A DNA stretch of 64,000 nt. Source: Acidobacteriota bacterium (GTDB lineage: Bacteria; Acidobacteriota; UBA6911; RPQK01; JADFOI01). Under the pieces are notes generated by a model, which saw nothing but the letters and a program-made list of their open reading frames with translations, was not told the DNA's origin and searched no databases. The position numbers were made by a program, and so were the translations under genes. The DNA lies in the NCBI GenBank assembly GCA_036338435.1, contig JAYZCG010000009.1, positions 7,733 to 71,732 on the forward strand, read 5' to 3'. Below, piece by piece: positions 2,659 to 22,529 of the stretch (position 1 is the stretch's first letter; each line of letters starts with the position of its first letter).

Positions 2659-2680
2659 CCTGTGTTGTCCCTTACACTTT

Positions 2681-3913: not shown

Positions 3914-4483
3914 CTAGTGCATGTAGAAGAAACAACTGAAAATAGCAGGAGGCGCGTCCGGCAAAACATGTGAAACCTTTAGTACAACATCACCAAACTC
4001 CACCTCTTCAACACGCTCCCCCTCCTTACCAGAGGCCTCTACTCGGTGGGGAAGGACGATATCCTCAGGCGAGATTGAGCCAACATTGAAAGTTATCTCA
4101 GCTATGGGACCATTGGGGAGGGCTTTCCCACCCTGGACTGATAAGTGAAGTATGGAGATATCGCCTTCTGAACTATCCTGGATCTCTGCCTTGACCACCG
4201 CCCCAGCCAGATCTGCTGCAATCCCCGCTCGTGTGCTTAAGTAGGTAAGTTTGGATGTAGGAAATTCTAACCAATGCTCCAGTTGGGACATAGAAACATC
4301 CGGCGCATTCGAAAGTAGGATGGTCACATAAGTCCGTTGTCCAGGCTGTACCGTGGGAGAAGCAAGTACAATGGATGCCCTACCACTTTCCTCTTCTTCC
4401 TGACTCAGCTCTGGCACCTCGTCCTGGGCCCGAACCAGCCCAAAACTAAGTAGCAAGATCGCTACACCAGCAGTCTTGTACAT
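3914..4483 (-). CDS. Secreted cohesin-like beta-sandwich protein with C-terminal CFFYMH tail (copy 1)
   Basis: Sec-type signal peptide (MYKTAGVAILLLSFGLVRA), alternating beta-strand pattern (LEFPTSKLTY, GPIAEITFNV), ends PPAIFSCFFYMH*. The cohesin assignment is by pattern only. Confidence 0.75.
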   Translation of the reverse strand: MYKTAGVAILLLSFGLVRAQDEVPELSQEEEESGRASIVLASPTVQPGQRTYVTILLSNAPDVSMSQLEHWLEFPTSKLTYLSTRAGIAADLAGAVVKAEIQDSSEGDISILHLSVQGGKALPNGPIAEITFNVGSISPEDIVLPHRVEASGKEGERVEEVEFGDVVLKVSHVLPDAPPAIFSCFFYMH

Positions 4484-4610
4484 GACCTACTCCTCACTCT
4501 CAATACTCTCAAAATGCCCAGATCCACTGTCTAAAACTCAAAGTGATTCACGCAGTCGTAAGAGGTTTAAAACCGACCCCTAACTATATCACATTCCCGA
4601 TCAAGGCCCC

Positions 4611-5609
4611 TCAGACCCGAATAAGTCTCTTTATATTCTCCTCATAAATCTTCCCCTTGTCCTCTCCAGAGGCTTCCAGATCCTCCATCGTTTTGATGGT
4701 GTCACCGACAAAGACGTGGCCTCCTTCGGAGTCAAAAGGCATGTCCGAACCAAATAGGACTCGGTCCACACCGAAAAAATCAATTCCACACTCCAGGGCC
4801 GCAACTGAGCCATTGGTAGCTGTATCTGCATAGAACATCTTGAAATAATCATAGGGATGACGTTTGAGTTTACCTAATAGTTCCCGACCGGCATCCGATC
4901 TCTTGCCTACCTTGTTGTATCCCTGGAGAATTCTTCCGTGGGTATAGGGAACTAAACCACCAAGATGATGGGTTATGATCTTCAGAGTGGGATATTTGTC
5001 AAAAAGACCGGCAAAAACTAGTCGAGTCATGGCGGCCGTACTGTCATAAGTCCATCCGAAAATATGCCAGATATCGTATAACGACTCACTCTCAGCTGGA
5101 TAATCAGAGAACTTCCCATTCCGCCCTGGATGTAGCCAGATAGGCAAATCACATTCTGCCATTTTTTTAAAAATGGGCATGAATTCAGGGTCGTCTAAAG
5201 GACGCCCCTTAACATGGGTAAAAAGCTGGATGCCTTTGAGATCCAAATCGTTAATTGCCCTATCTATTTCAATCAGGGCTGCATCGGGATCGTTCATGGG
5301 AATACAGGCCACAGCCCCCACAAAACGATCCGGATATTTGGTAACCAACTCTGCCATTTCATCATTGGCAATGCGAGACATCTCCGCAGCCTCTTCCGGA
5401 TCGGCTATCACTTCCACAGGAGGATTAGCCATGGTCAAAATCTGGACGTAGTCATCGAACATATCCATGACTCTGAACCTCTCTTCAAGATTGATTATAG
5501 CGGGCATTGTCTTAAGCCGTGCCTCTAGACCCATCGAGGGTGGAGCCGCAGCTAAACGTCTTTTGTTAAACTCTGGTGTGAGGATATGGCAGAAAACATC
5601 AATTTTCAC
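4611..5609 (-). CDS. Amidohydrolase_2 family protein (cytoplasmic; nonoxidative decarboxylase/hydrolase class)
   Basis: MKIDVFCHI start, PIWLHP, IITHHLGGLVP and RVLFGSDMPF motifs; no signal peptide. Confidence 0.88.
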   Translation of the reverse strand: MKIDVFCHILTPEFNKRRLAAAPPSMGLEARLKTMPAIINLEERFRVMDMFDDYVQILTMANPPVEVIADPEEAAEMSRIANDEMAELVTKYPDRFVGAVACIPMNDPDAALIEIDRAINDLDLKGIQLFTHVKGRPLDDPEFMPIFKKMAECDLPIWLHPGRNGKFSDYPAESESLYDIWHIFGWTYDSTAAMTRLVFAGLFDKYPTLKIITHHLGGLVPYTHGRILQGYNKVGKRSDAGRELLGKLKRHPYDYFKMFYADTATNGSVAALECGIDFFGVDRVLFGSDMPFDSEGGHVFVGDTIKTMEDLEASGEDKGKIYEENIKRLIRV

Positions 5610-5613
5610 AACT

Positions 5614-5637
5614 CTGTACTCCTTTCTGTACTCCTTT
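5614..5637 (-). repeat. 12-bp tandem duplication containing the Shine-Dalgarno sequence
   Basis: CTGTACTCCTTT x2 on plus, which is AAAGGAGTACAG x2 on minus, directly upstream of GTG 5609. Confidence 0.85.
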
Positions 5638-5803
5638 AGTAGTCCTGGGTAAACATGGCCAGAGTTTAATTAGAGACTGCGTAGGTGTCAATGGAATGCA
5701 ACGACAGATTAAGAATACTATTGGACTAGCTAGTGTGTACACACCCCAATCCAGTCTTGACAAACCCATCTTGCGACTTTAGACTACACGCCCAACCACG
5801 ATA

Positions 5804-6784
5804 ATGAAAACTCAACCGTCGTCCCTTCCCTCCTTCAGCGGAATCATCGGGGCATGTCTGACGCCCTTTCACGAGGATGGTCAGATTAATTATGAGGCGC
5901 TGAAACAAGAAATCGACTTTATTGTCGAAGATGCAGACGCAATCTCCATTGCCGCTGTAGAAGCCGCAGAATACACGATGCTTTCCATCCAAGAACGGAA
6001 AGAGCTCATGAAGATCGCAACCGAGATGGTTGGGAAACGCATTCCGGTTATTCTCGGTGCATCCCATCCCTCTCCAAAGCGAGCTATCGAGCTATCTGAA
6101 TACTGCGCTGATGTGGGTGCCGACATGGTTCAAGTCTTAATGCCGCTCCGTCCTTGGGGAAACCAGCCAACCATGAAGGAATTAATTGATTATTTCACGG
6201 AAATCGCCATGGCTTGTCCCGTTCCCATCATTGCCTATCACAATCCTGGAGCGGGAGCAGATCCCGATATGGAAACAACCATACGCCTAAGTGATATCTT
6301 TAACATCTGTGCCTTCAAGGAAAGCTCTCGCGATATTACTAAAATAACAAGGATGATTGAGGAAATTGAGCTGAGTGGGAACGCCCAGTATTTCACAACC
6401 ATGCAACCACTTTTGATGACCCTGGTTATGGGGGGATCAGGCGCTACCATGCCACCTCCGGGAACCCGCATTGGCGCGAAGGTAGTAAAGGCATTTCGAG
6501 AGGGCGATCAGGAAAAAGCTAAATATTGGCAACGCTTTTACTCCATGTTTCCAGCTAAATGGGGTGCCTATGGACTACCGCCTGTGATGAAATCAGCCTT
6601 AAAACACTTCGACATTGACATGGGAGATCCATCTCCACCTTACAAGCCTGTTGATCCCCGAGACCACGCTCAAATCGGAGAGTTTTTCCGTCAAATTGGC
6701 CTCTTTGATAAAGGAGAACAAACGGAAGTATCCTTCACGGAAGTAGTCTCCAAAATGGGACGGAAAGATACCTTTCTCCGTTAG
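5804..6784 (+). CDS. Dihydrodipicolinate synthase-family (class I aldolase/lyase) protein
   Basis: IIGACLTPFHEDGQINYEAL, IAYHNP (Tyr) and AFKESS (Schiff-base Lys). Confidence 0.85.
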   Translation: MKTQPSSLPSFSGIIGACLTPFHEDGQINYEALKQEIDFIVEDADAISIAAVEAAEYTMLSIQERKELMKIATEMVGKRIPVILGASHPSPKRAIELSEYCADVGADMVQVLMPLRPWGNQPTMKELIDYFTEIAMACPVPIIAYHNPGAGADPDMETTIRLSDIFNICAFKESSRDITKITRMIEEIELSGNAQYFTTMQPLLMTLVMGGSGATMPPPGTRIGAKVVKAFREGDQEKAKYWQRFYSMFPAKWGAYGLPPVMKSALKHFDIDMGDPSPPYKPVDPRDHAQIGEFFRQIGLFDKGEQTEVSFTEVVSKMGRKDTFLR

Positions 6785-6813
6785 ACCAGTGAGGTATTAA
6801 TCCGGATAAATAA

Positions 6814-8199
6814 ATGCTGACAGTATTTTGGAGTATTGGTCTTATTTCGGTGTTCTTTGTCTTCCTGTTTGTGGGCAAAACCAAAGGTCCTTTCGAGCTG
6901 ATTAAACAATGGACGGACACCTGGATTTCTCGATTCTTGAGGTCAACCTCACACTTTGGCCAGGAACTCACTAAAGAAAGCCTTGCAGATCAAAGATGGT
7001 TGCGAAGAATACGTCTGCGGGATTTGCACTATCACGCTCCCACAATTATTACCCACCCTCGCCACAGAATCGTAGTATTAGGAGGGGGAAGCGGTGGCTT
7101 GGTCGCTGCTACTCAGCTAGCTCGAACACTCGGAACAGATCATGAGGTCATCCTGATTGATCGGCGTCCTGACCATGTCTTTATGCCAGCTTTTCTCTTC
7201 CTAATGGTAGGTCAACGACGTCCTCAGGATATCACTCGCAAACTGAAACGCCTTGAACGACACAACGTCAAAGTTGTCCAAGCTGAGATCGAAGGTATTG
7301 ATCCACAACGTCAAGAGATTATGCTGGACACAGATTCGCTTCACTACGACCATCTCATCATTTCTCTTGGGATGCAAACTGCCCCCGAGCTACTTACCGG
7401 ATTCACTGAAGCAGCTGAGCATAGTTGGGAGTTAGATGCCACTGTCAGTCTGCAGAAAACATTGCAATCCTTTGAAAAGGGACGCATTCTTGTTGGAGTC
7501 CCATCTGGTCCCTACCGGTGTCCACCTGCCCCCTACGAGGCTCAGTGGATGCTGGATAGTTATTTCAATGAGCGGGGCATTCGAGAAAAGATCAAAATTG
7601 AATTTTTTACAACCAGTCCTGAGCCAACAGGAGAAGAACGCACCCCTGCCGTGTGGATGGATGCACAAAGCAAAAAGCGGGGAATCAGGCAACACTACTC
7701 ATTCACTGCCCAATCGATTGATGCCGAACAACGAACCGTCAAGGGCCTTTATGGAGTTGAACTGCCCTACGACCTCCTGTTTATGGTTCCGCCTCACAAC
7801 CCAGCTCAAGCACTGGTCGACAGTGGGTTGGCAGAAACAAGAAACGGCATCCGCGTTGACTACGATACCATGGCAACACGCTGGAACAATGTTTACGCAA
7901 TTGGAGACTGTGCCGATATGCCAGTTTCCAAATCGGGCGGAGTAGCACACCAACAAGCCGAGCTGGTAGCCCATAATCTGATGGTTGAGCTAACCGGAGG
8001 AGGAGAACCCAAAACTTTACACTTACATGTTTTGTGACTACTTGCTTATGGCGCGGGCCGCGCCGCTGCTAATCGGACCATCTATCCTGCCAGCTGGCCC
8101 CCCTTTGGTTCGCCTGAGAGCCGTACTTGGGGCCCCTCTAGACTAATCTATGGAGCCAAGGTTGGTTTTGAAAAATGGTGGTTGTGGCGTTATTTTTGA
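6814..8199 (+). CDS. Sulfide:quinone oxidoreductase-like FAD-dependent oxidoreductase; candidate selenoprotein (in-frame TGA at 8035-8037)
   Basis: GGGSGG FAD motif, YRCPPAPYE and YAIGDCA. The ORF track stops at 8037, but the frame continues open for 53 codons (LLAYGAGRAA...GAKVGFEKWWLWRYF*) to TGA 8197-8199, supplying the typical SQR C-terminus. The family call is strong; readthrough is inferred. Confidence 0.75.
8050..8064 (+). promoter_or_regulatory. SECIS-like hairpin downstream of the in-frame UGA
   Basis: GGCGCG-GGC-CGCGCC perfect 6-bp stem starting 12 nt after the UGA, with a G-first apical loop. Confidence 0.5.
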
Positions 8200-8211
8200 G
8201 GAAATTAAGTA

Positions 8212-9720
8212 ATGAAAAGTACAAAAAATCAAACTCAGCACAATACTGTTACAGATCCGTCTAATGAGCAGACTATCCAGCTAGATTTGCGGGATTGGAT
8301 AGAGGAAATCAGAGAGCTAGGGAAATTAAAGGAAATACCAAGAGCCTCATGGGACCTGGAGATAGGCATTTTAACTGATCTCAATGTTAAATCCCATAAA
8401 TGGACACTCCTGTTTGATGAAATTGAAGATTATCCTGCCGGATATCGACTTCTGACGGGTTGTTGTCTCGACGCAAGTCGGGTTGCCCTGACCCTTGGTT
8501 TGTCTCCAAAATTAAATGATCTACAACTGGTCGAGGCATTGCGTCCCAAGCTGGATAAGATTGACTCCAACATCGGTCAGTTTCCTTTCATAGAGGTTTC
8601 GGATGCTCCGTTCCTGCAAAACCGCCAAGTAGGATCAGCAATTGACCTCGAGGCATTACCGGCCATGAGGTGGCATGAAAAGGATGGGGGACGCTATCTG
8701 GGCACCGTTGATGCGGTCGTCACTCGTGATCCAGATTCCGATTGGATTAATGTCGGAACCTATCGGATGATGATCCACGACAAACAACACCTGGGAACAC
8801 ATATCAATGTGTCTCACCACGCACGCCTGCATGCAGAAAAGTATTGGTCCCGTGGAGAAGACTGTCCAATAGCTATTTCTCTAGGTCAGCATCCTCTCAT
8901 TTCGCTTCTGGCTGGAATGGAAATACCTGTAGGAGTTTGTGAATATGATTACGCTGGCAGTCTATTATTGAGTCAATATCCGGTTGTGAAAGGACCCATC
9001 ACCAATCTACCTATCCCAGCAGATAGCGAGATTGTAGTGGAAGGATATCTCACTCAGGAATTAAGGAAAGAAGGGCCCTTCGGGGAATTTATGGGCTACT
9101 ATGCAGGAGGCACCATTGAAAATCCAGTGATCAGAGTAGAAGCGGTTTATTTTCGGGACAACCCCATCATCCTAGGCACAGCCGGTGGGCGACCTCCATA
9201 CGATTACTCGTATTATCGCTGCCCTCTCCGGTCAGCAATGCTTTGGAATGCTTTGGAAAAATCTGGAGTATCTGGAATAAAAGGGGTCTGGTGTCACGAA
9301 GCTGGCTATTCTCGTGCTCTTAACGTTTTGGCGCTGGAACAAGCCTACATGGGACATGCCGAGCAAGTTGGACATCTCGCTTCCCAGCTTCCGGAAGGTG
9401 TTTTCGGAGGCAAGTACGTAGTGGTGGTAGACTCGGACATCGATCCTTCCGACACCGACCAGGTGCTATGGGCGATTTGTTCCAGAACCGACCCAGCTGA
9501 AAATATTGAATTCATTCGTAATTCGTGGGGGATGAATCTAGATCCGATGGTCAAGATAGAACATGACAGCCAGCTTGGAGAGCTCCGAATGTCCCGAGCC
9601 ATCATCAACGCCTGCAAACCCTTCGACCGATTCATACGCGGGGACTTTCCCGAGGTCGTGGATCCTCCTGTCGAAATGAAGGATAAAATCCTGGCTAAAT
9701 GGGAGGACATCCTCGCTTAA
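8212..9720 (+). CDS. UbiD-family (prFMN-dependent) decarboxylase
   Basis: GGRYLGT, NVGTYRMM, EGPFGEFMGYY, VVVDSDIDP and LWAICSRTDP motifs. Confidence 0.92.
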   Translation: MKSTKNQTQHNTVTDPSNEQTIQLDLRDWIEEIRELGKLKEIPRASWDLEIGILTDLNVKSHKWTLLFDEIEDYPAGYRLLTGCCLDASRVALTLGLSPKLNDLQLVEALRPKLDKIDSNIGQFPFIEVSDAPFLQNRQVGSAIDLEALPAMRWHEKDGGRYLGTVDAVVTRDPDSDWINVGTYRMMIHDKQHLGTHINVSHHARLHAEKYWSRGEDCPIAISLGQHPLISLLAGMEIPVGVCEYDYAGSLLLSQYPVVKGPITNLPIPADSEIVVEGYLTQELRKEGPFGEFMGYYAGGTIENPVIRVEAVYFRDNPIILGTAGGRPPYDYSYYRCPLRSAMLWNALEKSGVSGIKGVWCHEAGYSRALNVLALEQAYMGHAEQVGHLASQLPEGVFGGKYVVVVDSDIDPSDTDQVLWAICSRTDPAENIEFIRNSWGMNLDPMVKIEHDSQLGELRMSRAIINACKPFDRFIRGDFPEVVDPPVEMKDKILAKWEDILA

Positions 9721-9798
9721 TAAAATAAGCCAACCTACTAAACGAGTGCCCCGTCAAGAAAGTGGAAAGTTCGTAGATTTGCACGACGGTTCCGCAGG

Positions 9799-10359
9799 CT
9801 AATGCATGTAGAAGAAACATGCAAACATGGGGAGGGCAACTATGACATTGCCGGCCTTAACTTCAACGTTTTGAATGTTCTCTCCATTAGCGTTTTCCAA
9901 AGAAGCCTCCACAATACTGACGAGAAAGTCCTGACTTTCACTCATCTCTTCTGAAGAATCAAAAATAATTTCCAGTAGAGTTCCCTCCACAATGGCTTGA
10001 GGTGAGTCTAATTCAATGGATACGGTCCCGATTGAGCCCTGAACTTCACTCAGTGATTCTACAACGGCGTTCAGGATAAGACCTTCCGTTTCCACCACGG
10101 GGGATCTTATTTCTGCAAAACTCATAACAGTTAATGGAAACTGAACCTTCAGTCTCATGTGTCGAACATCTTGATCTTCCAGCCCATCCACCTCAATCGG
10201 TATGGCCACTGCACGGCCAGCCTCACCAACCGTATCTCGCACCGATATAATAGGATTTTTGGACTCCTGCCCGGACATAGGAACCGAGAATAGTGTAAGG
10301 ATAACGGCTACTAGGCAGGTCTTCAACCACCTATGAGTAAGAATTTTGGAGAAGGCCAT
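9799..10359 (-). CDS. Secreted cohesin-like protein with C-terminal CFFYMH tail (copy 2)
   Basis: Likely start ATG 10359 (MAFSKILTHRWLKTCLVAVILTLFSVPMSG signal peptide); the ORF track extends to 10446. Contains VQFPLTVMSF and GTLLEIIF; ends ALPMFACFFYMH*. Confidence 0.75.
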   Translation of the reverse strand: MAFSKILTHRWLKTCLVAVILTLFSVPMSGQESKNPIISVRDTVGEAGRAVAIPIEVDGLEDQDVRHMRLKVQFPLTVMSFAEIRSPVVETEGLILNAVVESLSEVQGSIGTVSIELDSPQAIVEGTLLEIIFDSSEEMSESQDFLVSIVEASLENANGENIQNVEVKAGNVIVALPMFACFFYMH

Positions 10360-10568
10360 CTTATGTCCATTTGACTGACAGAAGGGGATATACAATCGAT
10401 ACTGTAGAAAAATTCCCACTCCCCAATTATAGCGCCCCTTCACCAAGGCCAGTCTTCCCTACGAATCAGGCTGTAATGTTAAGGAAGGAAGCTTGCTCTC
10501 CTTGACATTACCCCTACAACAAAAACAAACAAATGAGCATCTGTACGCAACACCAGCCAAAGTAGGAT

Positions 10569-12332
10569 CTAACCGTAGTTTGGATACTCCACTTTTTGAT
10601 TGGGATCCTTGTCAGGGTTGATATAAACAAACTTGCCCCCGATCATGGTCATCAAAACTGGAATGTCCCTGATCTTTTCCTTGGGCACCGTCAATATATC
10701 TTGCCCTAATACTACTAGGTCGGCTAACTTTCCAGTCTCTATAGAACCTTTAACATCTTCCTCAAAAGATGCATAAGCAGGGACAATAGTGCAAGCGCGG
10801 ATAGCCTCCTCTAAAGTCATACGCTCCTCTGGCTGAATGACCTTTCCTGATTTTCTAAACCGATTCACAGAAGCCCAAATAGTGTTGAGCGGTCCGATAG
10901 GTTTTTGATCCGTTCCCGTCATGACTTTAATTCCGCTATCCAAGTACGTTCTGGTGGGAATTGGTCCGTATCTTCCCGGCTCTACCTGGTTCTCCAAATC
11001 GTCGCTGGCGCGTAACAAACTACTCGTTTGAGGTTCCACCAACACATCATACTTCTTAAGAACCTCAATGTTTTCCCTGGAGGGATAACGAGCATGAGTT
11101 ATAACATGGCGAGCATCCTCACGTGGAAATTCTCGGTATGCCTCCTCCAGCGACTCGGTCACCACATCGAAGGATTCACCTCCACCAAGGTGAATGAACA
11201 TCTGCCAACCCGATTTGTGAGCAGCCTTGATGATAGCTTTCACCTTGTCCGGAGGAACACGCATTCCAGAACCATCCACGCTAATTTTTAGAGTCCCAAC
11301 CCGCAAGGAATCATTGCGAAATTCTGGAGCAAATAGAAAGCTGTCCAAAAAGGCCAGGTTCTGTTCTAGGGTTTCCACCCTAATGGGCATACGGATCATC
11401 GCATTGATTCGAACCGTCAATTTACCCTGTCGACTGAGACGCTGGTAGGCTTGCAGACCCGGCTGGTTGTCCATGGCCTTACCTATGTTGGTGCAGGGAT
11501 CATATAAACTGGTAAGTCCCTGCTTTACAACCGCTTTCGATCCTCTCAAGATATTTTCTTCCAGTACCTCAGTAGGATACAAATTAAAGGGTCCACGGGC
11601 TAATGTAGTCGCTCCTTTTTCCCTCAAAACCCCAGTTGGCTCACCAGTCTCAGGATCCTTCACAATCTCCCCTGCGAAGCCTCTCTCAGTAGGTTGAGGA
11701 GTATCCTTGGTGATGGTACCTACCATGTCTATTAATTTACTGTTTACAATCGTAGTATGATCCGCCCCAAAACCTAGAATAACAGGGTTATCCGGCGATA
11801 CCGGATCTAAATCATATCGTGTAGGCCATCGCTTTTCAGCGAGTTCGCTGGAACTTCGCACTCCACGAGAAAACCAAACAATCTCTCCGGGGGGTGTTTG
11901 TTCCACCTTCATTTGTAGTGCTTTTCTAACTGCCTCAATGGAACGTGCTTCACTAAACATGTCCTCGTAACGATCACTTGTCTTGCCCACCTTGTGGGCA
12001 AAGTGAACGTGGGGATCATTAAAGCCTGGGAGCACCGTACGACCCTCTAGATCAATCTCCTCTGTATTAGGTCCGATCAGTGCTTTGATGTCAGCATTGG
12101 TCCCAACAGCAATGAACCTGCCATCCTTAATGGCTACTGCTTCAGCAATACTGAATTCTTCATCGACAGTGACAATTTTGCCATTAAACAAAACCTTGTC
12201 AGGTTTCAGTGCATCCAGAGGATCAGCCGTAGCACCTATGACCGTGAAAATGCCAGGATGTAAGGCATTCAATCCTAATACGGCCACCAACAACAAACCG
12301 AACAACGCCGAATTTCTTGCAGACTTTTTCAT
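10569..12332 (-). CDS. Exported YtcJ-like metal-dependent amidohydrolase (Amidohydro_3), paralog A
   Basis: Start ATG 12332 with GGAAGGAG RBS; signal peptide. Motifs PGFNDPHVH, GTLKISVDG, MFIH, VITHA, GTDQKP and GSIETGKLADLVVL. Confidence 0.9.
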   Translation of the reverse strand: MKKSARNSALFGLLLVAVLGLNALHPGIFTVIGATADPLDALKPDKVLFNGKIVTVDEEFSIAEAVAIKDGRFIAVGTNADIKALIGPNTEEIDLEGRTVLPGFNDPHVHFAHKVGKTSDRYEDMFSEARSIEAVRKALQMKVEQTPPGEIVWFSRGVRSSSELAEKRWPTRYDLDPVSPDNPVILGFGADHTTIVNSKLIDMVGTITKDTPQPTERGFAGEIVKDPETGEPTGVLREKGATTLARGPFNLYPTEVLEENILRGSKAVVKQGLTSLYDPCTNIGKAMDNQPGLQAYQRLSRQGKLTVRINAMIRMPIRVETLEQNLAFLDSFLFAPEFRNDSLRVGTLKISVDGSGMRVPPDKVKAIIKAAHKSGWQMFIHLGGGESFDVVTESLEEAYREFPREDARHVITHARYPSRENIEVLKKYDVLVEPQTSSLLRASDDLENQVEPGRYGPIPTRTYLDSGIKVMTGTDQKPIGPLNTIWASVNRFRKSGKVIQPEERMTLEEAIRACTIVPAYASFEEDVKGSIETGKLADLVVLGQDILTVPKEKIRDIPVLMTMIGGKFVYINPDKDPNQKVEYPNYG

Positions 12333-12628
12333 GCTTATCTCCTTCCCTCCGTGACAACGTTCCCACATCTTGTGGCGGTGTGCAAGGTAATAGTCTCATC
12401 GTCCATTACCTTGTCTCCCCATAGTACTCAGCAATCCGGACACCTATGATATCCATTAAAGCAAAAGTACATTCGCACATCGGGCAGGATGGATTATTCC
12501 CCCCGACGGGCACATGCCCTCCAATCCATGTTGTTCATGCATTAGACCAGCAATTTTATTGATATCTAGCCGGTGAAATGCATGTGCGGATCAAAGCTGG
12601 ATTCAACAAAAATGCGGCCACACACGAG

Positions 12629-13120: not shown

Positions 13121-13218
13121 AAATTCAATTCCTTAAATTCTTCACCGTAGTGCATTGGTCGATCACTCGGAGTACCGTGCCGAAAGATCAAGAGATCTAT
13201 AAAAAATCACAACAGCTT

Positions 13219-14845: not shown

Positions 14846-14872
14846 TTTATACCAAAAAAATATTGGTATAAA
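14846..14872. promoter_or_regulatory. Perfect inverted repeat, candidate operator upstream of glnA
   Basis: TTTATACCAA-N7-TTGGTATAAA in an AT-rich intergenic stretch about 200 bp upstream of the glnA start. Confidence 0.5.
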
Positions 14873-15157
14873 ATTTTGAATTGTCGATATGGACGATAGC
14901 ATGCTAAACACAAAAATTTGGCTGCCACTATGGCAGAATGCGAACGCATCACGCAGAGTCAGTCATCAGGTCCACCAACAAACGATATGGACGAATGAGA
15001 GTAATGAAGGCAAGGTGAAATGGGCGTAGCTATCACAAACCGACCCCCTGCACTGAAGAAAACCCATCAGTCTTTCTCCAGACATGTGCCTGGCTAGCTT
15101 GCTTTAAATTTGGCTTCGTACGACCTGATCCAGAAGTAGTGTGGTGACATTTAGCGT

Positions 15158-15610: not shown

Positions 15611-15710
15611 TAGCGTCTTTCTCCTAACATGTTAGATGTTGTTTTGCATTGAGCCATTTCAATGAATCTATCCCAACGAGTCTATCTTATAGCAAAGCAT
15701 CCCCTTCAGA

Positions 15711-16145
15711 TCAAAAAGTCGCCTTCTTCTCAAAGAAGTGATCTACGGCTCCTTGTGCTACAACTTGATCCTGTCCAGCTGTGCCGGCACTGATTCCTAC
15801 ACCGCCCACAACATCACCATCAATGACGATTGGAAGACCTCCGCCAATGACAGAAAATCGTCCCTGATTCGTAATGTGGATCCCGAAGGTGGGTTCACCC
15901 GGCACACATAATTGATTGTATTCATGGGTTCCCTTGCGGGCTGCGGCACCCGTGAAAGCCTTATCGATCGCAATAGAAATACTTGAAATTTTGGCTCCGT
16001 CCATTCTGGTAAAGGCAAGCAAGTTGCCTGACTCATCAGCCACTGCAATACACATCGGCACTTCAATTTCACGGGACTTTTCTTCCGCACCTTCTACTAA
16101 AATTCTAGCTTCATCTAATGAGAGCCTTTTTATACTAAGCATCAA
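15711..16145 (-). CDS. GlcG/HbpS family heme-binding protein
   Basis: CIAVADESGNLLAFTRMDGA, AIDKAFT, GGGLPI and GGVGISAGTAGQD. Confidence 0.9.
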   Translation of the reverse strand: MMLSIKRLSLDEARILVEGAEEKSREIEVPMCIAVADESGNLLAFTRMDGAKISSISIAIDKAFTGAAARKGTHEYNQLCVPGEPTFGIHITNQGRFSVIGGGLPIVIDGDVVGGVGISAGTAGQDQVVAQGAVDHFFEKKATF

Positions 16146-16307
16146 GCTACTCCTCCCTAATATTATAAACTTTCCACTCGCGACGATTCATACAATCGCA
16201 TTTGAGGCATAGAGTCAAGTATCTATGACCTAATCCAACTATGTGCTTAATCCAGCCTTGCCAACATCAAATATTTGAGTTATAAAGACCGGAGAACTGA
16301 CGTGACC

Positions 16308-17777
16308 ATGCTTAACAATCTTGGCCCTATACTGAAAGTGTTGTGCGGACCGGTTGCCTTTGGCGCCGTCTACGCAGCTCCCATGGAAGGACTTTCCTAT
16401 GAGGGACAAGTTGCTTTGGCAACCTTCGTCTGGGCAGTATTCTGGTGGATGGCCCGGCCGATACCCTGGGCGATCTCCTCATTGCTCCCTCTATTTGTTT
16501 TTCCAGCATTTCAGGTGATGTCGATTCGTGACGCTACAGGTCTCTACGGACAGAGGCTTTTCTTCTGGTTACTCGGTATTTCAATGATGGGCTACGCCTT
16601 GGAAAAACATGGAGTGGCTAAACGTATCGCACTGGTTTTTCTGCGACTCAAAGGAGTGGCAAACAGTACAGCGGCCCTTACCTTCATGTACATGCTCGTT
16701 GCCGCCGTCCTATCCTGGTTCATTGCCGATGCTGGCGTGATTGCCATGATGATGCCCATCGGGATGTCTCTTTATGCCTATATTGCCAGTGTGGGAGGCA
16801 TTAATCCTCCGGAAGGGCAAAAGAGCAGACTGGCCTCCTTTCTAGCGCTAGGGACTCTTTACGGGGCCGTTGCAGGAGGTGTAGGTACATTGGCGGGAGG
16901 CCCCCACAACGTCATCGCCGTAGCGCTTTCAGAGAGCCTAGCGGGAGAGTATGTTAGCTGGTTCAGATGGATGAAAGTGGGGGTACCCCTTTTCATCGTA
17001 CTTCTTGTCACCTTCTGGCTTCTACTCCGCTTTTTCTTCCCGCCGGAAATTAGCAAAATTCCCGGAGGGAGAGAATTTATACACGGGGAATTGCAGAAGC
17101 TAGGAAAGTTAACCCGAGGGGAAATTAATGTTCTGGTGGCTTTCGCCTGCATGGTTCTGATGTTCACAGGACCCTCAATAGTCTCCCTGGTGCTTGGAGC
17201 ACAACATCCCCTTGCCCTTTATCTGCGTGGTTCTCTAGCAACCTGGGTCGTTCCTCCGACCATTTTAATCCTCCTTTTCCTCCTGCCTGTCAACTTTAAG
17301 AAGGCAGAGGGGACACTAGTCTGGGACGATGTAGCCCAAAGAGCACCATGGAATATTATCTTCCTATGCACCGGTGGTGTGGCAATGGCCGATGCTCTTA
17401 TGGACTTTGGAGTCCTGGATTATACCCAAGGGGTCATCGGATCATTGGGTATCGGTGCAACAGGATTGCCCTTTTTGGCAGCTGGTTCCGTGGTTGTAGG
17501 CACCAACCTCTTCTCAGGAACCGCCGCTGCCACGCTATTTTGTAGCGTCTATATTCCGGCTGCAATGGATGTGGGATTCAACCCTGTCAGCATTGGCATA
17601 CTCGTGACCAATCTAGCCGTAGGCATTCTGTTCCCCTGGTCGGGCGCTTCAGCTGGAACCGCCTTTGCTTCCGGTTATCTGGACATGCAGGAGATGATTA
17701 AGGTAGGGATTGTGGGCACCGTGTTACTGATAGTACTCTCCGTGGGCATACACTTCATATTCGAGCCAATCCTCTAG
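16308..17777 (+). CDS. SLC13/DASS family anion (dicarboxylate/sulfate):Na+ symporter
   Basis: Multiple TM helices; GGVGTLAGGPHNVIA, LFSGTAAATL and PWSGASAGTAFASG. Likely start ATG 16308. Confidence 0.85.
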   Translation: MLNNLGPILKVLCGPVAFGAVYAAPMEGLSYEGQVALATFVWAVFWWMARPIPWAISSLLPLFVFPAFQVMSIRDATGLYGQRLFFWLLGISMMGYALEKHGVAKRIALVFLRLKGVANSTAALTFMYMLVAAVLSWFIADAGVIAMMMPIGMSLYAYIASVGGINPPEGQKSRLASFLALGTLYGAVAGGVGTLAGGPHNVIAVALSESLAGEYVSWFRWMKVGVPLFIVLLVTFWLLLRFFFPPEISKIPGGREFIHGELQKLGKLTRGEINVLVAFACMVLMFTGPSIVSLVLGAQHPLALYLRGSLATWVVPPTILILLFLLPVNFKKAEGTLVWDDVAQRAPWNIIFLCTGGVAMADALMDFGVLDYTQGVIGSLGIGATGLPFLAAGSVVVGTNLFSGTAAATLFCSVYIPAAMDVGFNPVSIGILVTNLAVGILFPWSGASAGTAFASGYLDMQEMIKVGIVGTVLLIVLSVGIHFIFEPIL

Positions 17778-17907
17778 GTCTGGGTTCAGGAACCGATGCG
17801 CTCTCCTCGGATACCGTGTCACGACAGGCTACAGCCAGCGCGCGAACCAAACATTAGCTAGGCTTCTCTTCTCCAAGTCAAAAACCCGTGGTGGTGGCGT
17901 GCGAAAT

Positions 17908-19662
17908 CTAAAATGCCCCCTCGACCTCATAAACAACCTTGCCATCCACGACGGTCATCAAGATTCGGAGTCGCTCAAGATCACTTTCTGGAAAAGTCAT
18001 ATAGTCTCCTGCAAGCACGACTAGATCAGCCAATTTACCGGGTTCGATTGAGCCCAGAATGTCCTCCTCCCCGCTATAAGCGGCGGCCCAAAGAGTGTAC
18101 ATATAAAGGGCCTCTTCCCTACTGACTTTCTCTTCCGGATCTAGCTGACGACCCTTTTGGTCAATGCGCCTCACCCAGTTTTGGATATTAAATAAGGGGA
18201 AAGCGGTGCGGTGAGTGAATGCATCCGCTTCTGCGGCCGGCCTGATGCCAGCTTCGATCAAAGACTTGACCGGTTGCATCTTGTACACTGCATCCATGCC
18301 ATACATTGTGACCAAAGCATCATTACCGTACATGGCTTTTGAATAAACGCTCGGAATAATATCCATTTCTTTGAGCTGTGCGTAGTGCTCTGGCTGCAAC
18401 ATTAGACCGTGATCAATGCTAAAATGGCGCCCTACTAAAGATTTTTCTTTGTGTGCTTCCTCAAAGACTTCAAGCATGAGGGTGTTGCTCATATCACCAC
18501 TACTATGGAGTGAAGAGACCGTCCAACCATAACGATTAGCCAAAATAATGCTTTGCCGGTCACTAGTAGCCAAATCACCGCTTTCTTCCCACTTGTTCAT
18601 TCCAAAAGGTCCGTAAGGATCCTCCGGCAGGAGCGTAGTCTTGGCCTTAGAAGTGTTAGCAGACCCATTGTTGGAGGTTCCATCGACAACCTGTACTGAC
18701 GTCCCGATTATTTTGAACCAGTCATTGCCAACATCAGTCAGGTTGCCTAATCTTTTTAAATAGGCCTCCGGATATCCATTTTGGCGCAGAAAATGGTGTG
18801 CTACCCGCACCCTCATCGTTAGCTCCCGATGCATCATCAGTTCCCGAAATACTGTAACCTCCAGGCCTCCAGCTCGCCCCATCAAGGTAGTTAATCCCAT
18901 CTCATTGTGACGACGGAAAGATGCCTTCTGCGGCTCCAGCAAAGACTCGACTTCCGGCCAAGGTTCTAGTTCGAATCCAGGAATTCCAGCGGCCGCGCCC
19001 CTGAGGTGTCCCGTCAAATCTCCGTTGTCATCTAGAACAATGCCTGCAACATCCTTGGGAATTCTGTCTAAGACTAGACTATTAGCTACCACCTGGTCAT
19101 TCATCGCCTCAATATAGAGAGGATTATTTGGAGCAACTTCATCCAAAAGATTCACGTTTAATTCATGGTTAACTACCGGATTGCTAGGCCCAGACAACGC
19201 TAAGAACTCTCCTGGCTGAGCTTCCTTGACTAACGTTCGTAGACCCTCTAAAGCACTCTCCAGAGTATCCCAATCAATGTCGTCATCGCTAAATGGAACC
19301 GCCATACTTCGATCTCGGGCCGGGCGCGTAACCCACGCTGAGTGCAAATGAGTGTCTATAAACCCCGGCACGACACTGCGCCCCTCTAGGTCTATCCTTT
19401 GGGTCTCTGGACCCGCCATGGCCAAAACCCTTTGGGTGGTTCCCACAGCCAGAAACTTGCCGTCTCGGATCGCCACCGCTTGGGCAATGGTAAATTGCTC
19501 GTCAGCAGTTATAACCTTGCCGTTATAAAAGACTGCGTCGGCATAAGCGACCACCTCCGCAGGCAGGGTACCGGCGCTTTGCCCCAATCCTGTCTGGGTC
19601 ATAGACAACAAAACTACTGCCATCCCACAGCAACGAAAATAACTCTTACAAATTCGAATCAT
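17908..19662 (-). CDS. Exported YtcJ-like amidohydrolase, paralog B
   Basis: Signal peptide; PGFIDTHLH, SSLHSSGD, SIDHG, AAEAD and GSIEPGKLADLVVL. Confidence 0.9.
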   Translation of the reverse strand: MIRICKSYFRCCGMAVVLLSMTQTGLGQSAGTLPAEVVAYADAVFYNGKVITADEQFTIAQAVAIRDGKFLAVGTTQRVLAMAGPETQRIDLEGRSVVPGFIDTHLHSAWVTRPARDRSMAVPFSDDDIDWDTLESALEGLRTLVKEAQPGEFLALSGPSNPVVNHELNVNLLDEVAPNNPLYIEAMNDQVVANSLVLDRIPKDVAGIVLDDNGDLTGHLRGAAAGIPGFELEPWPEVESLLEPQKASFRRHNEMGLTTLMGRAGGLEVTVFRELMMHRELTMRVRVAHHFLRQNGYPEAYLKRLGNLTDVGNDWFKIIGTSVQVVDGTSNNGSANTSKAKTTLLPEDPYGPFGMNKWEESGDLATSDRQSIILANRYGWTVSSLHSSGDMSNTLMLEVFEEAHKEKSLVGRHFSIDHGLMLQPEHYAQLKEMDIIPSVYSKAMYGNDALVTMYGMDAVYKMQPVKSLIEAGIRPAAEADAFTHRTAFPLFNIQNWVRRIDQKGRQLDPEEKVSREEALYMYTLWAAAYSGEEDILGSIEPGKLADLVVLAGDYMTFPESDLERLRILMTVVDGKVVYEVEGAF

Positions 19663-19691
19663 ACTATCTCCTTATTCGCACAAAGTCGGCA

Positions 19692-21701
19692 CTAGTCCAT
19701 AAGGGCTGCTTCCCTTTTTCCCTCTACTGTGAAGGCTTCACCAATTTCAGCAATTTCACTGTCTTCAAAGCTGTAGTGGGGACCTACCGGTGCGGTTTCC
19801 CATTCACTTGCCAAAGTCTCATTTAACACGATGACCTTTCCCCCCACCATAGTCATGAGCGGTCGAATCTTGAGAAGATCATCAACGGGAACAGTAAAAT
19901 AGTCTCGATCCATAACCATAAAATCTGCCCATTTCCCCGTCTCAAGGGTGCCAAGCTCATCCTCCTTCATGATGTAGCGAGAGGCCCAAGCGGTCCACAT
20001 CTTCAAAGCATGTACCCGATCAATCCGTTCCTCGGGTTGCCACACTCTCCCATCATATTTCCGGGTAATAGCTTGCCACAACATAAAGAAAGGTGGCTGG
20101 CGCTGCCCACGTCTCACAGTACCTTCGCCTCCTCCTCCTTTGAAAGCACCGCCGCCGTAGTGCTGTCCCACCAGATTTACTCCAGATTCGATCCAAGTCC
20201 TAAATGGAATGAAAAAGTCCTCAATGTTATCAGTGTAGGGACCATAATCCTTGATCCATGAACGCATCACACTCACGTAGTCGGGACCGCAACTAAGGAT
20301 GAGCCCATACCTCTTAATCTTGTCAATTACATCGGGCTGTTTCCCAATCAAATCACAATGCTCTAAGGCAAAGTGCTGATCATGAATGTCCTGCACCGAC
20401 ATACCTGTTAGTTCTCTAGCCTCATCGACCATCTCAATGAATCTTCTCAGACTTTCGCTGCCACAGGTATGTACTCCCTTAATCCTCCAGCCTGCCCTAA
20501 TTGCATTAACCAAAGTGTCCCAATGCAAATCCCCCTTTTGGGGACATGTCTCACGGGCCTTCAGGTGAGCCGGGGCATTGGTATCTGGTCCCAGACAGGA
20601 CTCTGGGAAGTGTGAATCCCATCGCTCTGAGGCCACACCATCAAACCAGAAATAGTCATTGCCAATCCCCTGCAAAACGCCGGTACGCCGATACAATTGT
20701 CGGGTCTCCTGGGGATCGGTCGGCATCCGGTGCACTTCGTAATGTGCGTTGAACCGGATTGGCATTTGTCCCATCTCGGCTAGTCTGGCATATCCGGTCA
20801 TCACTTTGGGAAACTGTACTCGACTTGAAAACGTTGTAACTCCTAAGGAGGCCCACGCCTCAGACTCCAGTTTTAGCATCTGAGCCAACGTATTGGGCTC
20901 CAGACCCTCCAGAAAGAGTTCCCAGGTGATCACCGACATTTCTTGACTCCCGACCCATCCGATATCCGGGATGTCTTCGCCAATCACATCGCCATGCATT
21001 GTCTCTTGGATAGAGGCAGAATAACCGGGCAGGAAATCATTGATAACCTCCAAACCTTTGGAGTTAATAAACCCTCGATTCCCAGGTCGCACCAGGATGG
21101 GATTATCAGGAGCCCACTGATCCAATGCACGGCGATTAGTCAAAACCCGTGTAGCTCCCCAAACACCTATCTGTTTAGGATCAGACGGATGACCATCAAC
21201 CGCAACCATGAGCCATTTACCGGGTTCCATGTTTGCCACGGCTTCTTGAATTCCATCTCGGAGAGCACCTTGAGTTCTCTCCAGATCCAACTCTGCCTCA
21301 ACTGTCACCTCCTCAGCCGGATACTCGTACCCAAAACGGTCTAACCAACGCAACGACCTTCCATAAATATGCTGGTGGGTCTCAATAATGCCCGGAATCA
21401 AGGTGCGTCCATTCAGGTCCAACACCTGGGTTCTGCGGCCAGCCAAAGAACGAATTTCCTCGTTAGTACCTAGCTTCATGATGGAATCACCTTTAACAGC
21501 TACAGCCTCATAGACATTGCCCACTTCAGCCGAAGCTGACTTGTCATCCATACTAACAACCTTACCCCCAACAAAGATCGTGTCGGCATAGCCCATGATC
21601 TCTACCTCGGGTGGCAGTTGCTGTGAGTACAAGAAAAATCCAGGCAAAAAAACGATGAGCACTGTGGCCCAAAACTTACATTTAGCAGTGTTGATTTTCA
21701 T
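19692..21701 (-). CDS. Exported YtcJ-like amidohydrolase, paralog C (divergent active site)
   Basis: Signal peptide; PGIIETHQH, KGVHTCG, ALEHCD and GTLETGKWADF; GQHYG where paralogs have GTD/EAD. Confidence 0.85.
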   Translation of the reverse strand: MKINTAKCKFWATVLIVFLPGFFLYSQQLPPEVEIMGYADTIFVGGKVVSMDDKSASAEVGNVYEAVAVKGDSIMKLGTNEEIRSLAGRRTQVLDLNGRTLIPGIIETHQHIYGRSLRWLDRFGYEYPAEEVTVEAELDLERTQGALRDGIQEAVANMEPGKWLMVAVDGHPSDPKQIGVWGATRVLTNRRALDQWAPDNPILVRPGNRGFINSKGLEVINDFLPGYSASIQETMHGDVIGEDIPDIGWVGSQEMSVITWELFLEGLEPNTLAQMLKLESEAWASLGVTTFSSRVQFPKVMTGYARLAEMGQMPIRFNAHYEVHRMPTDPQETRQLYRRTGVLQGIGNDYFWFDGVASERWDSHFPESCLGPDTNAPAHLKARETCPQKGDLHWDTLVNAIRAGWRIKGVHTCGSESLRRFIEMVDEARELTGMSVQDIHDQHFALEHCDLIGKQPDVIDKIKRYGLILSCGPDYVSVMRSWIKDYGPYTDNIEDFFIPFRTWIESGVNLVGQHYGGGAFKGGGGEGTVRRGQRQPPFFMLWQAITRKYDGRVWQPEERIDRVHALKMWTAWASRYIMKEDELGTLETGKWADFMVMDRDYFTVPVDDLLKIRPLMTMVGGKVIVLNETLASEWETAPVGPHYSFEDSEIAEIGEAFTVEGKREAALMD

Positions 21702-22001
21702 GGTAATGGACGTACTGGAATCTCAGGCTATCTTCTACCCGCTTCCAGCCGCACGCTCCTTTCACTTTGGTGGTCAAGATTTACAACATTTCAGGCCAGC
21801 TAGTAACGAAAATCGTGCCCAGGTCATTCTCGTTCTTCGACAAGAACTTAGCTTCACCTAGCCTAAGTCTAGAATTGGGAAAACAAACTGTCAAGACAGT
21901 CTAGGACGATTCTACACCACCCGCACCCGCCTCAGCGGCCCGTCTATCATCCTAGGCAAGTCAGTCCAGCCAGATTCCTGGGCAAATGGAGGGCTAATCC
22001 T

Positions 22002-22529
22002 TTAGTGCATATAGAAAAAGCACGCAGGTATGAATTCGATGGATGTGATCGATCCACTCAAACCTCGGGCTGCTAAATCATTTCCGTCCAATGATTTAGC
22101 ACTCTGGATAAGATTCTCTAATTGGATATCATGGTTAGCAGCAATCTCCTGGGAAATCTCAAAACTCAGCGTGACCAGCAACCCCTGGTCAATGGAACTA
22201 GTCGAAGAAATCTCCACTCTTAGAATTTTTTGTTCACCATCGCCATCATCTCGTACCTGGGTATTCAACTTAGCGCCTTGCACATCAACGGCACCACCAA
22301 GAACGGCATCAGTGAAAGAAAGTGACGTGGCGGGAAACGCCATCTCGAACACTACCAAACCCACCTGGGGATCGTTTCGGGTAACTACAGTGACAGGAAT
22401 CTCTGCCGTGTCGCCCTGGGTAAAGGTATCGACAAGAACCCCGAAATCAATATTGACACCAGGTACACCCTGGGGACTGACGACTACAATCACAAGCGCA
22501 AATAGGAAAGCTAGGGGAATACTCTTCAT
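22002..22529 (-). CDS. Secreted cohesin-like protein with C-terminal CFFYMH tail (copy 3)
   Basis: Signal peptide MKSIPLAFLFALVIVVVS; AEIPVTV, MAFPATSLSF and GLLVTLSFEI; ends IEFIPACFFYMH*. Confidence 0.75.
   Translation of the reverse strand: MKSIPLAFLFALVIVVVSPQGVPGVNIDFGVLVDTFTQGDTAEIPVTVVTRNDPQVGLVVFEMAFPATSLSFTDAVLGGAVDVQGAKLNTQVRDDGDGEQKILRVEISSTSSIDQGLLVTLSFEISQEIAANHDIQLENLIQSAKSLDGNDLAARGLSGSITSIEFIPACFFYMH

Follow-up and report, generated by a model that had tools for sequence, protein, structure and literature searches.

Almost the only role known for cohesins, to our knowledge, is that of dockerin receptor in cellulosomes. Here we describe a family of exported proteins with a predicted cohesin fold that end in the hexapeptide CFFYMH, three genes of which lie in a stretch of 64,000 nucleotides from an Acidobacteriota bacterium (contig JAYZCG010000009.1, positions 7,733 to 71,732; the whole stretch is called the window below). 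The three CFFYMH genes of the window are referred to as copies 1 to 3, related loci carry L-numbers, and AH3 stands for the amidohydrolase family Amidohydro_3. The adjacency of CFFYMH genes to genes encoding exported AH3 enzymes was highly non-random, and this gives non-cellulosomal cohesins a specific candidate partner class.

The closest described systems are scaffoldins with a single cohesin. ScaE is a cell-surface cohesin that tethers the cellulosome (PMC5429695). Like the CFFYMH proteins, ScaE of Ruminococcus flavefaciens and the scaffoldins OlpA and OlpC of Clostridium thermocellum are exported, combine one cohesin with a short C-terminal element and are encoded near the enzymes they serve, and the structural match between the two groups is strong. 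The partners of the scaffoldins, however, are dockerin-bearing glycoside hydrolases, whereas the CFFYMH genes adjoin AH3 genes without dockerin in diderm Acidobacteriota hosts. Pfam gave no Dockerin match on the AH3 proteins of the window and no dockerin among the 25 listed families of 127 flanking open reading frames (ORFs) from related loci, and the calcium-loop pattern D-x-[DN]-x-[DN]-G was absent from the six amidohydrolases of the window. The C-termini differ likewise: a scaffoldin ends in an LPXTG sortase signal or an S-layer homology (SLH) domain, whereas the CFFYMH chain is closed by an invariant six-residue peptide, and no SLH or LPXTG model matched the CFFYMH proteins. Since the partners lack dockerins this is not a cohesin-dockerin system, and since LPXTG and SLH are missing the proteins are not anchoring scaffoldins. 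The non-cellulosomal cohesins of Archaeoglobus fulgidus (2xdh) and Clostridium perfringens (2jh2) share with the CFFYMH proteins a stand-alone cohesin fold in a non-cellulolytic setting, and 2xdh was among the best structural matches (target-normalised TM-score 0.80); unlike the CFFYMH proteins, however, they lack an invariant hexapeptide at the C-terminus, and no link between them and amidohydrolases has been reported.

Fold, tail and distribution of the CFFYMH proteins

Scanned in six frames, the window contains three ORFs, and no more, that end in CFFYMH-stop. All three lie on the minus strand, and each product starts with a hydrophobic, signal-peptide-like segment. Copies 1 and 3 matched Pfam Cohesin below the cut-off of 24.1 bits (E 4.7e-4, 20.8 bits and E 4.4e-4, 20.9 bits, respectively) and copy 2 gave no Pfam Cohesin match; several orthologues of copy 3 have a precomputed PF00963 match. 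The tail was kept in all orthologues of copy 1 (49-98% identity), and the homologues of copy 2 were P0018-P0020. In the AlphaFold2 model of copy 3 (mean pLDDT 83.8, pTM 0.75) residues 24-163 are predicted to form a beta-sandwich with the jelly-roll topology of cohesins. Because the C-terminal extension was modelled with low confidence, the tail is probably flexible. When this model was compared with the PDB by Foldseek, the top 50 matches were all cohesins (best E 2.4e-10, target-normalised TM-score 0.78-0.80), including non-cellulosomal as well as anchoring cohesins (ScaE 2zf9, OlpA 3ul4, OlpC 4dh2).

Throughout the family a signal peptide is followed by the cohesin-fold beta-sandwich, a flexible proline-rich linker of 10-18 residues and the C-terminal tail. 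The short proteins retrieved terminate in C-[FL]-F-[YF]-x-H, with variants such as CLFYMH, CFFFSH, CFFFTH and CFFFNH. C(-6), F(-4), Y(-3) and H(-1) were invariant among 149 family representatives, which had been picked by the pattern C..Y.H-end, so that variants with F at -3 stand separately; at position -2, Met was swapped for S, T, N, V or L. The tail cysteine is preceded by [ILV]-[FP]-[ASG] (I/V/L in 88%, F/P in 78% and A/S/G in 93%), and the resulting [ILV]-[FP]-[ASG]-C at residues -9 to -6 looks like a lipobox, although it stands at the C-terminus and not behind a signal peptide. The tail cysteine was the lone cysteine in the tail and the 144 residues before it for 162 of 173 proteins. 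The body is acidic and low in His, Met and Tyr (1.0% His, 1.2% Met, 0.1% Cys), and it diverges down to about 20% identity with few invariant positions, around an invariant tail. As a cohesin hidden Markov model built without the tail matched 172 of the 173 tail-bearing ORFs, the tail is confined to this domain family and is not a general tag.

Profile searching of 1.84 billion cluster representatives (clustered at 50%) returned 1225 proteins at E <= 1e-3 and 438 at E <= 1e-10, mostly of 170-220 aa and aligned through the profile end. Among the matches listed by a DNA-pattern scan of one-genome-per-species contigs (see below), the hosts were almost exclusively Acidobacteriota metagenome-assembled genomes, joined by one from Binatia and one labelled 'uncultured bacterium', and single genomes held up to 10 or more copies. 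No NCBIfam model matched the CFFYMH proteins at E <= 1, the sources call them 'hypothetical protein' wherever they name them at all, and full-text literature searches returned nothing for 'CFFYMH' and nothing relevant for cohesin, Acidobacteria and amidohydrolase combined. The CFFYMH family is a large, unnamed, multi-copy family of exported single-cohesin-fold proteins specific to the Acidobacteriota lineage.

The conservation of the hexapeptide is at the protein level, not at the DNA level. In the window the tail codons of copies 1, 2 and 3 vary at synonymous sites (TGT, TGT and TGC for Cys; TAC, TAC and TAT for Tyr) and the stop codons are TAG, TAG and TAA. Since, in addition, no DNA similarity was found past the stop codons of the three copies, a DNA-level element overlying the ORF ends, such as a repeat, a terminator or the end of a mobile element, was ruled out.

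Adjacency of CFFYMH genes to exported AH3 genes

In the initial annotation every CFFYMH gene of the window was described as a co-oriented neighbour of an amidohydrolase gene, and this layout was confirmed with measured gaps of 127 bp for copy 1 (4611 to 4483), 209 bp for copy 2 (10569 to the ATG at 10359) and 300 bp for copy 3 (22002 to 21701). Two accompanying reservations proved correct as well: the Amidohydro_2 neighbour of copy 1 carries no signal peptide and hence fits a cytoplasmic enzyme, and the AH3 pair D/E (28268-31863) has no CFFYMH gene beside it. Taken alone, the window is suggestive, not decisive. Eight of its 42 non-amidohydrolase genes flank an amidohydrolase of any family, which makes the probability that all three CFFYMH genes do so about 0.005 (hypergeometric); with AH3 only, two of the three were adjacent (permutation p = 0.11).

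We therefore turn to the related loci. One-genome-per-species contigs scanned for the DNA pattern of CFFYMH-stop gave at least 114 loci; among the matches listed, about 77 end cohesin-like ORFs of at least 90 aa, and about 40 are chance matches in very short ORFs of unrelated phyla, which were used as negative control. Around the listed genes that end cohesin-like ORFs, homologues of the window's amidohydrolases accounted for 38/127 of the ORFs directly at the flank. Two genes away the share was 13/93, three genes away 4/61 and at distance >=4 only 1/73, against 1/343 at the control loci. When the 127 flanking ORFs were assigned by Pfam, 32 were Amidohydro_3 and three Amidohydro_2, and no other family occurred more than four times. 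An independent metagenome scan contributed 93 further CFFYMH genes, so that 170 were available beyond the window in all. There, 53/137 flanking ORFs were amidohydrolase homologues vs 3/69 at distance >=4, and 50 of the 88 informative CFFYMH genes were amidohydrolase-adjacent.

When both scans were combined, AH3 made up 88 of 252 flanking ORFs (35%) and 11 of 224 ORFs at least three genes away (5%; odds ratio 10.4, Fisher p 2e-17). Dereplication at 70% identity left the difference in place (42/127 vs 10/181; odds ratio 8.4, p 2e-10). Permuting the gene order within loci, a conservative test, gave 54.4 +/- 4.2 expected adjacencies vs 82 observed, a value reached in 0 of 5000 permutations. An AH3-adjacent member was present in 23 of 43 informative clusters formed at 45% identity, and 84 of 166 informative CFFYMH genes (51%) were AH3-adjacent. 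The concern that adjacency might be due to chance, raised together with the initial description, is thus contradicted for AH3 by flank enrichment, permutation and dereplication, and a comparison with shuffled gene order, which had been proposed as a check, came out in favour of AH3 enrichment when the order was shuffled within loci. On the other hand, the statement that every CFFYMH gene neighbours an amidohydrolase is valid for the window (3/3) and does not extend to the related loci, and co-orientation, complete in the window, is no universal rule, with 64% of adjacent pairs elsewhere lying on the same strand.

The commonest layout was AH3 followed by CFFYMH on one strand (44 pairs; median gap 35 bp, with 19 gaps of at most 20 bp). 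Convergent pairs (28), CFFYMH followed by AH3 on one strand (18) and divergent pairs (7) made up the other adjacent layouts. In L116 the stop codon of the AH3 gene overlaps the start of the CFFYMH gene, which encodes P0020, a 42%-identical homologue of copy 2. Copy 3 at the head of an AH3 array was kept at 71% identity in L239-L241, where the island is syntenic with the window. The layout of the L239 island is that of the window, where one cohesin gene separates two arrays of AH3 genes.

Long tail-bearing ORFs were searched for enzyme-cohesin fusions, and two cases were retained: a TPR-cohesin-tail protein in L036 and a frameshifted AH3-cohesin-tail ORF in L152 (Ga0209980_10008869, 544-2993, minus strand). 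In the latter the AH3 reading frame runs into the cohesin domain with neither a stop codon nor a signal peptide in between, is broken solely by a 1-nt shift at a T9 run (~901-909) and then continues to ...ACFFYMH-stop. Judged from its sequence, L152 is an apparent AH3-cohesin-tail fusion, in which the frameshift may be a sequencing error in an intact fusion or may indicate that the fusion is decaying. The remaining long tail-bearing ORFs appeared to be upstream extensions of ORF calls and not real coding sequence, and were rejected as fusions.

Absence of any physical partnership would mean that CFFYMH and AH3 genes simply co-proliferate in catabolic islands, by segmental duplication or through shared regulation, while the cohesin protein serves another purpose, e.g. 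binding of a substrate or polymer, or is processed by an S41/PDZ protease. The islands are indeed rich in AH3, UbiD, tannase-like, aldolase and Mo-hydroxylase genes, and the mixed orientation of pairs (28 convergent and seven divergent) would be expected from such an origin. The orthologue of copy 2 in L001, a 2.1-Mb relative, adjoins a TonB-dependent receptor and a UbiD gene and no AH3, and the copy-1 subfamily shows synteny with the S41/PDZ protease. Moreover, mirror-tree analysis of adjacent cohesin and AH3 sequences gave weak evidence for co-divergence at best (rho 0.14, Mantel p 0.057), with none among paralogous pairs. Nevertheless, the enrichment was specific to the direct flank and to AH3, and it survived both within-locus permutation and dereplication; tight or overlapping junctions and the apparent fusion in L152 also speak against mere co-proliferation, which we consider quite improbable. 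Other families of the islands, namely TonB-dependent outer membrane proteins, UbiD, Abhydrolase_10, Mo-hydroxylase, CoxG and class II aldolase, were not enriched at the flank, and of two families without annotation unk470 showed marginal enrichment (p 0.048) and unk554 none. As only AH3 was clearly flank-enriched, a general-purpose adaptor serving exported enzymes of any kind, or one serving TonB-dependent receptors, was rejected as the main pattern.

Probable partnership with AH3 and candidate roles of the tail

We consider a functional partnership between CFFYMH proteins and AH3 enzymes likely. All AH3 neighbours of CFFYMH genes had a Sec signal peptide or a lipobox, and pairing outside the cytoplasm is reasonable because both partners carry signal peptides. 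The two-component extracytoplasmic system proposed in the initial annotation is partly supported: as far as exported AH3 is concerned, enrichment, tight junctions, 23 of 43 clusters and the apparent L152 fusion are in its favour, whereas copy 1 and its Amidohydro_2 neighbour do not belong to the pattern. A cohesin fold, as modelled for copy 3, fits a protein-binding role as scaffold or adaptor.

How the tail contributes is a more tentative matter. We suggest, as a possibility, that it engages the metal site or the active-site funnel of AH3. The CFFYMH proteins would then be dedicated accessory subunits of exported AH3 metallohydrolases. The beta-sandwich would carry the tail and dock it on the enzyme, and the tail would be the working end that reaches the metal-containing active-site funnel common to divergent AH3 paralogues. 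Thiolate, imidazole and terminal carboxylate could ligate a metal or hand it over, while F-F-Y might fill the hydrophobic substrate channel. The outcome could be a plug acting in trans in the manner of a cysteine switch, or a maturation factor of the metal site for enzymes that fold and acquire metal outside the cytoplasm. This proposal is favoured because AH3 is the sole clearly flank-enriched partner family, because an invariant tail should recognise an invariant part of AH3, such as the catalytic centre, and because Cys and His are metal ligands; the exact C-terminal position of the motif further implies that the free carboxylate is read. With near-free evolution of the body and no co-divergence with AH3, the body is better suited as a carrier than as a cargo-specific binder, and the thioredoxin-fold neighbours of two subfamilies (described below) fit a thiol that is kept reduced. 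If the tail does regulate or mature the metal site, it would be a new kind of control of amidohydrolase-superfamily enzymes outside the cytoplasm.

Several observations weigh against such a tail in the metal site. About half of the CFFYMH genes have no adjacent AH3, and no co-divergence of cohesin and AH3 was detected. One cohesin gene often serves two or three AH3 genes, as in the window and in L239, which fits poorly with a stoichiometric plug. Met at -2 gives way to S, T, N, V or L in some members and hence is not a required ligand. The very hydrophobic FFY and the lipobox-like context suit a membrane or anchor role equally well, and a need for latency in periplasmic catabolic enzymes is not evident. 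The p-values of the adjacency analysis are approximate, because the loci are short and phylogenetically non-independent to a residual degree, and ORF calling was crude; the effect size is nevertheless large enough not to hinge on these weaknesses.

Known inhibitors that act through a terminal peptide offer the nearest mechanistic parallel for a plug. The carboxypeptidase inhibitors of potato and leech use a C-terminal tail, AprI/Inh uses an N-terminal tail and its gene adjoins that of a serralysin protease, and the cysteine switch of pro-matrix metalloproteinases (pro-MMPs) is a thiol-ligating prodomain. Like the CFFYMH proteins, these are small exported beta-rich proteins or prodomains with a flexible terminal peptide and a metal-ligating group, and AprI resembles them also in the adjacency of its gene to a metallohydrolase gene. 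The features needed for such action, i.e. a tail predicted to be flexible, a lone cysteine and a terminal histidine, were present in the CFFYMH proteins. There is, however, no kinship in sequence or fold, the targets are zinc proteases whereas TIM-barrel amidohydrolases are the candidate targets here, and unlike tail inhibitors one CFFYMH gene often stands with several enzyme genes.

The main rival explanation is that of an anchoring adaptor, in which the cohesin body binds the enzyme and the tail is a new envelope-anchoring or sorting signal recognised by one shared receptor or enzyme, whether by lipidation or covalent attachment at the lone cysteine or by interfacial insertion of FFYMH into a membrane. 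Such a protein would be a diderm analogue of the single-cohesin scaffoldins ScaE or OlpA. The cohesin fold with anchoring scaffoldins (2zf9, 3ul4, 4dh2) among its structural matches agrees with this, and the contrast between a constant tail and a strongly varying body is what would be expected of a shared anchor with variable cargo binding. Also in agreement are the resemblance of [ILV]-[FP]-[ASG]-C to a lipobox, the hydrophobic FFY core, the tail cysteine as lone cysteine, the many paralogues per genome, as in known sorting-signal families, and the retention of the tail in the apparent L152 fusion. Other exported proteins adjoin some members, with unk470 the only one to reach even marginal enrichment. 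Against an anchor, no dockerin was found on AH3 or on the neighbours, no recurrent candidate sorting enzyme was found beside the CFFYMH genes, the co-divergence of body and AH3 expected from cargo-specific binding was not seen, and periplasmic enzymes of a diderm have no obvious need for an anchor. On balance we regard anchoring as doubtful.

The comparison with described sorting signals points the same way. LPXTG/sortase, PEP-CTERM/exosortase and GlyGly-CTERM/rhombosortase share with the CFFYMH proteins an invariant short C-terminal motif, many paralogues and a restricted lineage. The CFFYMH motif differs from the tripartite signals in that only five residues follow the cysteine, no transmembrane helix or basic cluster was found, no NCBIfam sorting-signal model matched, and the motif sits on one domain family only, unlike general sorting signals. 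A true lipobox closes an N-terminal signal peptide, whereas the CFFYMH cysteine, with similar preceding residues, lies at the C-terminus of a folded domain, which is not the arrangement of a lipoprotein. Nor does the tail resemble the beta-signal of outer membrane proteins, a C-terminal aromatic residue, usually Phe, closing a beta-barrel: the terminal residue here is invariantly His and the predicted fold is a soluble beta-sandwich. Should the anchor prove real, it would represent a novel sorting signal, in a phylum that is little studied although abundant in the environment.

A further explanation, which we judge unlikely, is that of a private periplasmic foldase or metallochaperone without inhibitory action, giving transient help in folding or metal loading to Sec-exported AH3 with the Cys/His tail as metal carrier. 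Lif assists lipases in this way, and PCuAC and Sco assist copper centres. The order AH3 then CFFYMH is like that of lipase-foldase operons, one accessory gene per AH3 array would suit a catalytic helper, and Cys, His and a terminal carboxylate are well suited to binding a metal. TlpA-like and thioredoxin-like genes neighbour two subfamilies, and an Nramp gene adjoins copy 1 and two of its orthologues; however, these neighbours are each limited to single subfamilies. No known metallochaperone motif was found, no Pfam or NCBIfam model linked the proteins to PCuAC, CusF or Sco, no Pfam chaperone family matched, and the body contains little His, Met or Cys. Lif has in common with the CFFYMH proteins that the gene of an exported enzyme is followed in one operon by that of a small exported accessory protein, but it is helical, N-terminally membrane-anchored and without conserved C-terminal peptide, and the two are not homologous. 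It also counts against metal loading that, at the Lys position of the K-x-x-x-D-G motif, the majority of partner AH3s deviate from paralogue A and that this difference is uncorrelated with adjacency.

This Lys, which we take to be the usual carbamylated bridging Lys, was present only in A-type AH3s in a MAFFT alignment. The position is taken by S, T, G, R, C or N in AH3 B-E and in 67 of the 79 AH3s of related loci, while HxH is almost invariant (kept in 74-77 of the 79), and the alignment suggests that the non-A-type AH3s are a different metal-site subtype. The tail cysteine as substitute for the missing bridging Lys was rejected, since loss of the Lys did not correlate with adjacency. An intermolecular disulfide to a conserved AH3 cysteine was likewise dismissed, as mature AH3_B and AH3_D contain no Cys.

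By analogy, the CFFYMH proteins may work like the tail-inserting metallohydrolase inhibitors or like private periplasmic chaperones, being members of neither group. What is new is the combination of the tail and this candidate partner class on a cohesin-based putative accessory protein, and the mechanism of the tail could well be new too. It is conceivable, at a tentative level, that CFFYMH is a new functional C-terminal peptide, either a trans-acting thiol switch or metal-site maturation tail that a cohesin carrier presents to periplasmic enzymes of the amidohydrolase superfamily, or a lipobox-like attachment signal with its own processing enzyme. With the tail in the metal site or as an anchor alike, the outcome would be a new two-component system with at least several hundred divergent members in Acidobacteriota.

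Window genes, subfamily neighbours and island context

The features of the window are collected in Table 1. PF07969 matched all five exported AH3 paralogues (E 2.6e-76 to 2.9e-31), and all five contain HxH.

Table 1. CFFYMH genes of the window with their amidohydrolase and protease neighbours (all on the minus strand)
Feature	Position	Strand	Remarks
S41 C-terminal processing peptidase with PDZ	915..2609	-	Pfam Peptidase_S41 E 5e-50 + PDZ
CFFYMH copy 1	3914..4483	-	189 aa; signal peptide, cohesin-like domain, linker LPDAPPAIFS, CFFYMH tail
Tail codons C-F-F-Y-M-H, copy 1	3917..3934	-	
Amidohydro_2	4611..5609	-	332 aa; PF04909 E 1.7e-39; upstream of copy 1; N-terminus MKIDVFCHILTP
CFFYMH copy 2	9799..10359	-	186 aa from ATG 10359 (mechanical ORF reaches further, to TTG 10446); downstream of AH3 paralogue A
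Tail codons C-F-F-Y-M-H, copy 2	9802-9819	-	
Exported AH3 paralogue A	10569..12368, likely start ATG 12332	-	PF07969 E 2.6e-76; signal peptide MKKSARNSALFGLLLVAVLG; HxH motif at 119; upstream of copy 2
Exported AH3 paralogue B	17908..19662	-	PF07969 E 4.8e-53; signal peptide; second gene after copy 3
Exported AH3 paralogue C	19692..21701	-	669 aa; PF07969 E 2.9e-31; signal peptide; HQH at 108; directly downstream of copy 3
CFFYMH copy 3	22002..22529	-	175 aa; first gene of array copy 3 - AH3_C - AH3_B
Tail codons C-F-F-Y-M-H, copy 3	22005-22022	-	
Exported AH3 pair D/E	D 28268-30007, E 30139-31863	-	Pfam; same island, no CFFYMH gene adjoining

Because the Amidohydro_2 enzyme has no signal peptide and adjoins copy-1 orthologues only in the four closest genomes, its pairing with copy 1 is local synteny only and lies outside the AH3 pattern; the enzyme is probably no functional partner of copy 1. 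The S41/PDZ protease is the more deeply conserved neighbour of the copy-1 subfamily, being located one or two genes from copy-1-type genes in seven of eight loci (the window, L001, L019, L026, L044, L054 and L094). PDZ domains read free C-termini. Family-wide, flank enrichment of this protease was not significant (3/252 vs 1/224).

Genes for exported thioredoxin-fold proteins flank two other CFFYMH subfamilies, each gene type within one of them. A fusion of an AhpC/TSA-redoxin domain with DsbD_N lies beside the CFFYMH gene in seven loci (L206, L170, L043, L217, L187, L216 and L067) and a Thioredoxin_7 lipoprotein in three (L155, L199 and L195). These neighbours may be relevant to holding the lone tail cysteine in the reduced state.

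An ORF of about 150 aa without Pfam match is located directly upstream of the '...VFACFFYMH' subfamily in eight loci (L231 647-1123, L086, L119, L148, L179, L189, L197 and L137), with a convergent AH3 gene on the other side. The TPR-cohesin-tail protein of L036 (5659-7338, 559 aa) closes a Bat-like operon of MoxR, DUF58, VWA and VWA genes, and DUF58/VWA genes also adjoin several other CFFYMH genes (L061, L010, L014 and L116 10716-13573). Another recurrent exported family of about 550 aa had no Pfam or NCBIfam match and has invariant His, Asp and Gly positions (L108 4053-5717, L102 703-2364, L018, L053, L066, L069, L072 and others); profile searching against the PDB gave weak PDZ-like matches near residues 77-145 (E 0.01-0.9). 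It is common in these islands, with flank enrichment that was not significant.

AH3 enzymes of the B-E types carry the motif [QD]-L-P-P-E-[VI]-x-x-Y-A-D right after the predicted signal-peptide cleavage site (e.g. the window genes starting at 21701 and 19662), and an unrelated family of exported proteins, about 460 aa long, has a similar NPPSEV. 'PPEV' was rejected as an N-terminal docking motif common to the neighbouring enzymes, as it is found mainly in B-E-type AH3 and in one other family. Within the 300-bp gap between copy 3 and AH3_C, a sigma-70-like match (TTGACA-17-TAGACT, 10/12) is present at 21866-21894 on the minus strand, so AH3_C may have its own promoter; overall, promoter and terminator scans of the window gaps gave matches at chance level. 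An ORF of 184 aa at 22030-22584 on the plus strand is antisense to copy 3 with nearly full overlap. Conserved homologues exist for copy 3, which this ORF had displaced in naive longest-ORF calling, so the antisense ORF is probably spurious.

The left 34 kb of the window can be delimited as an island because the region from 34 to 64 kb contains housekeeping genes (Mfd, FtsH, TilS, HemB etc.) and no amidohydrolase. In addition to the five exported AH3 enzymes, the region 5804-34851 encodes two UbiD decarboxylases, an Abhydrolase_10/tannase-like protein, a class II aldolase, a 2-hydroxyacid dehydrogenase, the large and 2Fe-2S subunits of a Mo-hydroxylase, CoxG, an HbpS-like protein and a symporter of the Na/sulfate family, and this gene set is syntenic in L239-L241. 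The content suggests catabolism of aromatic or N-heterocyclic compounds, and the CFFYMH accessory protein could matter when the uncharacterised hydrolases of the island are expressed heterologously. At the right end of the window (56082-63819) lies a Bat-like cluster with GATase1_like/MG2, TPR + Peptidase_MA, DUF4159 and MoxR genes.

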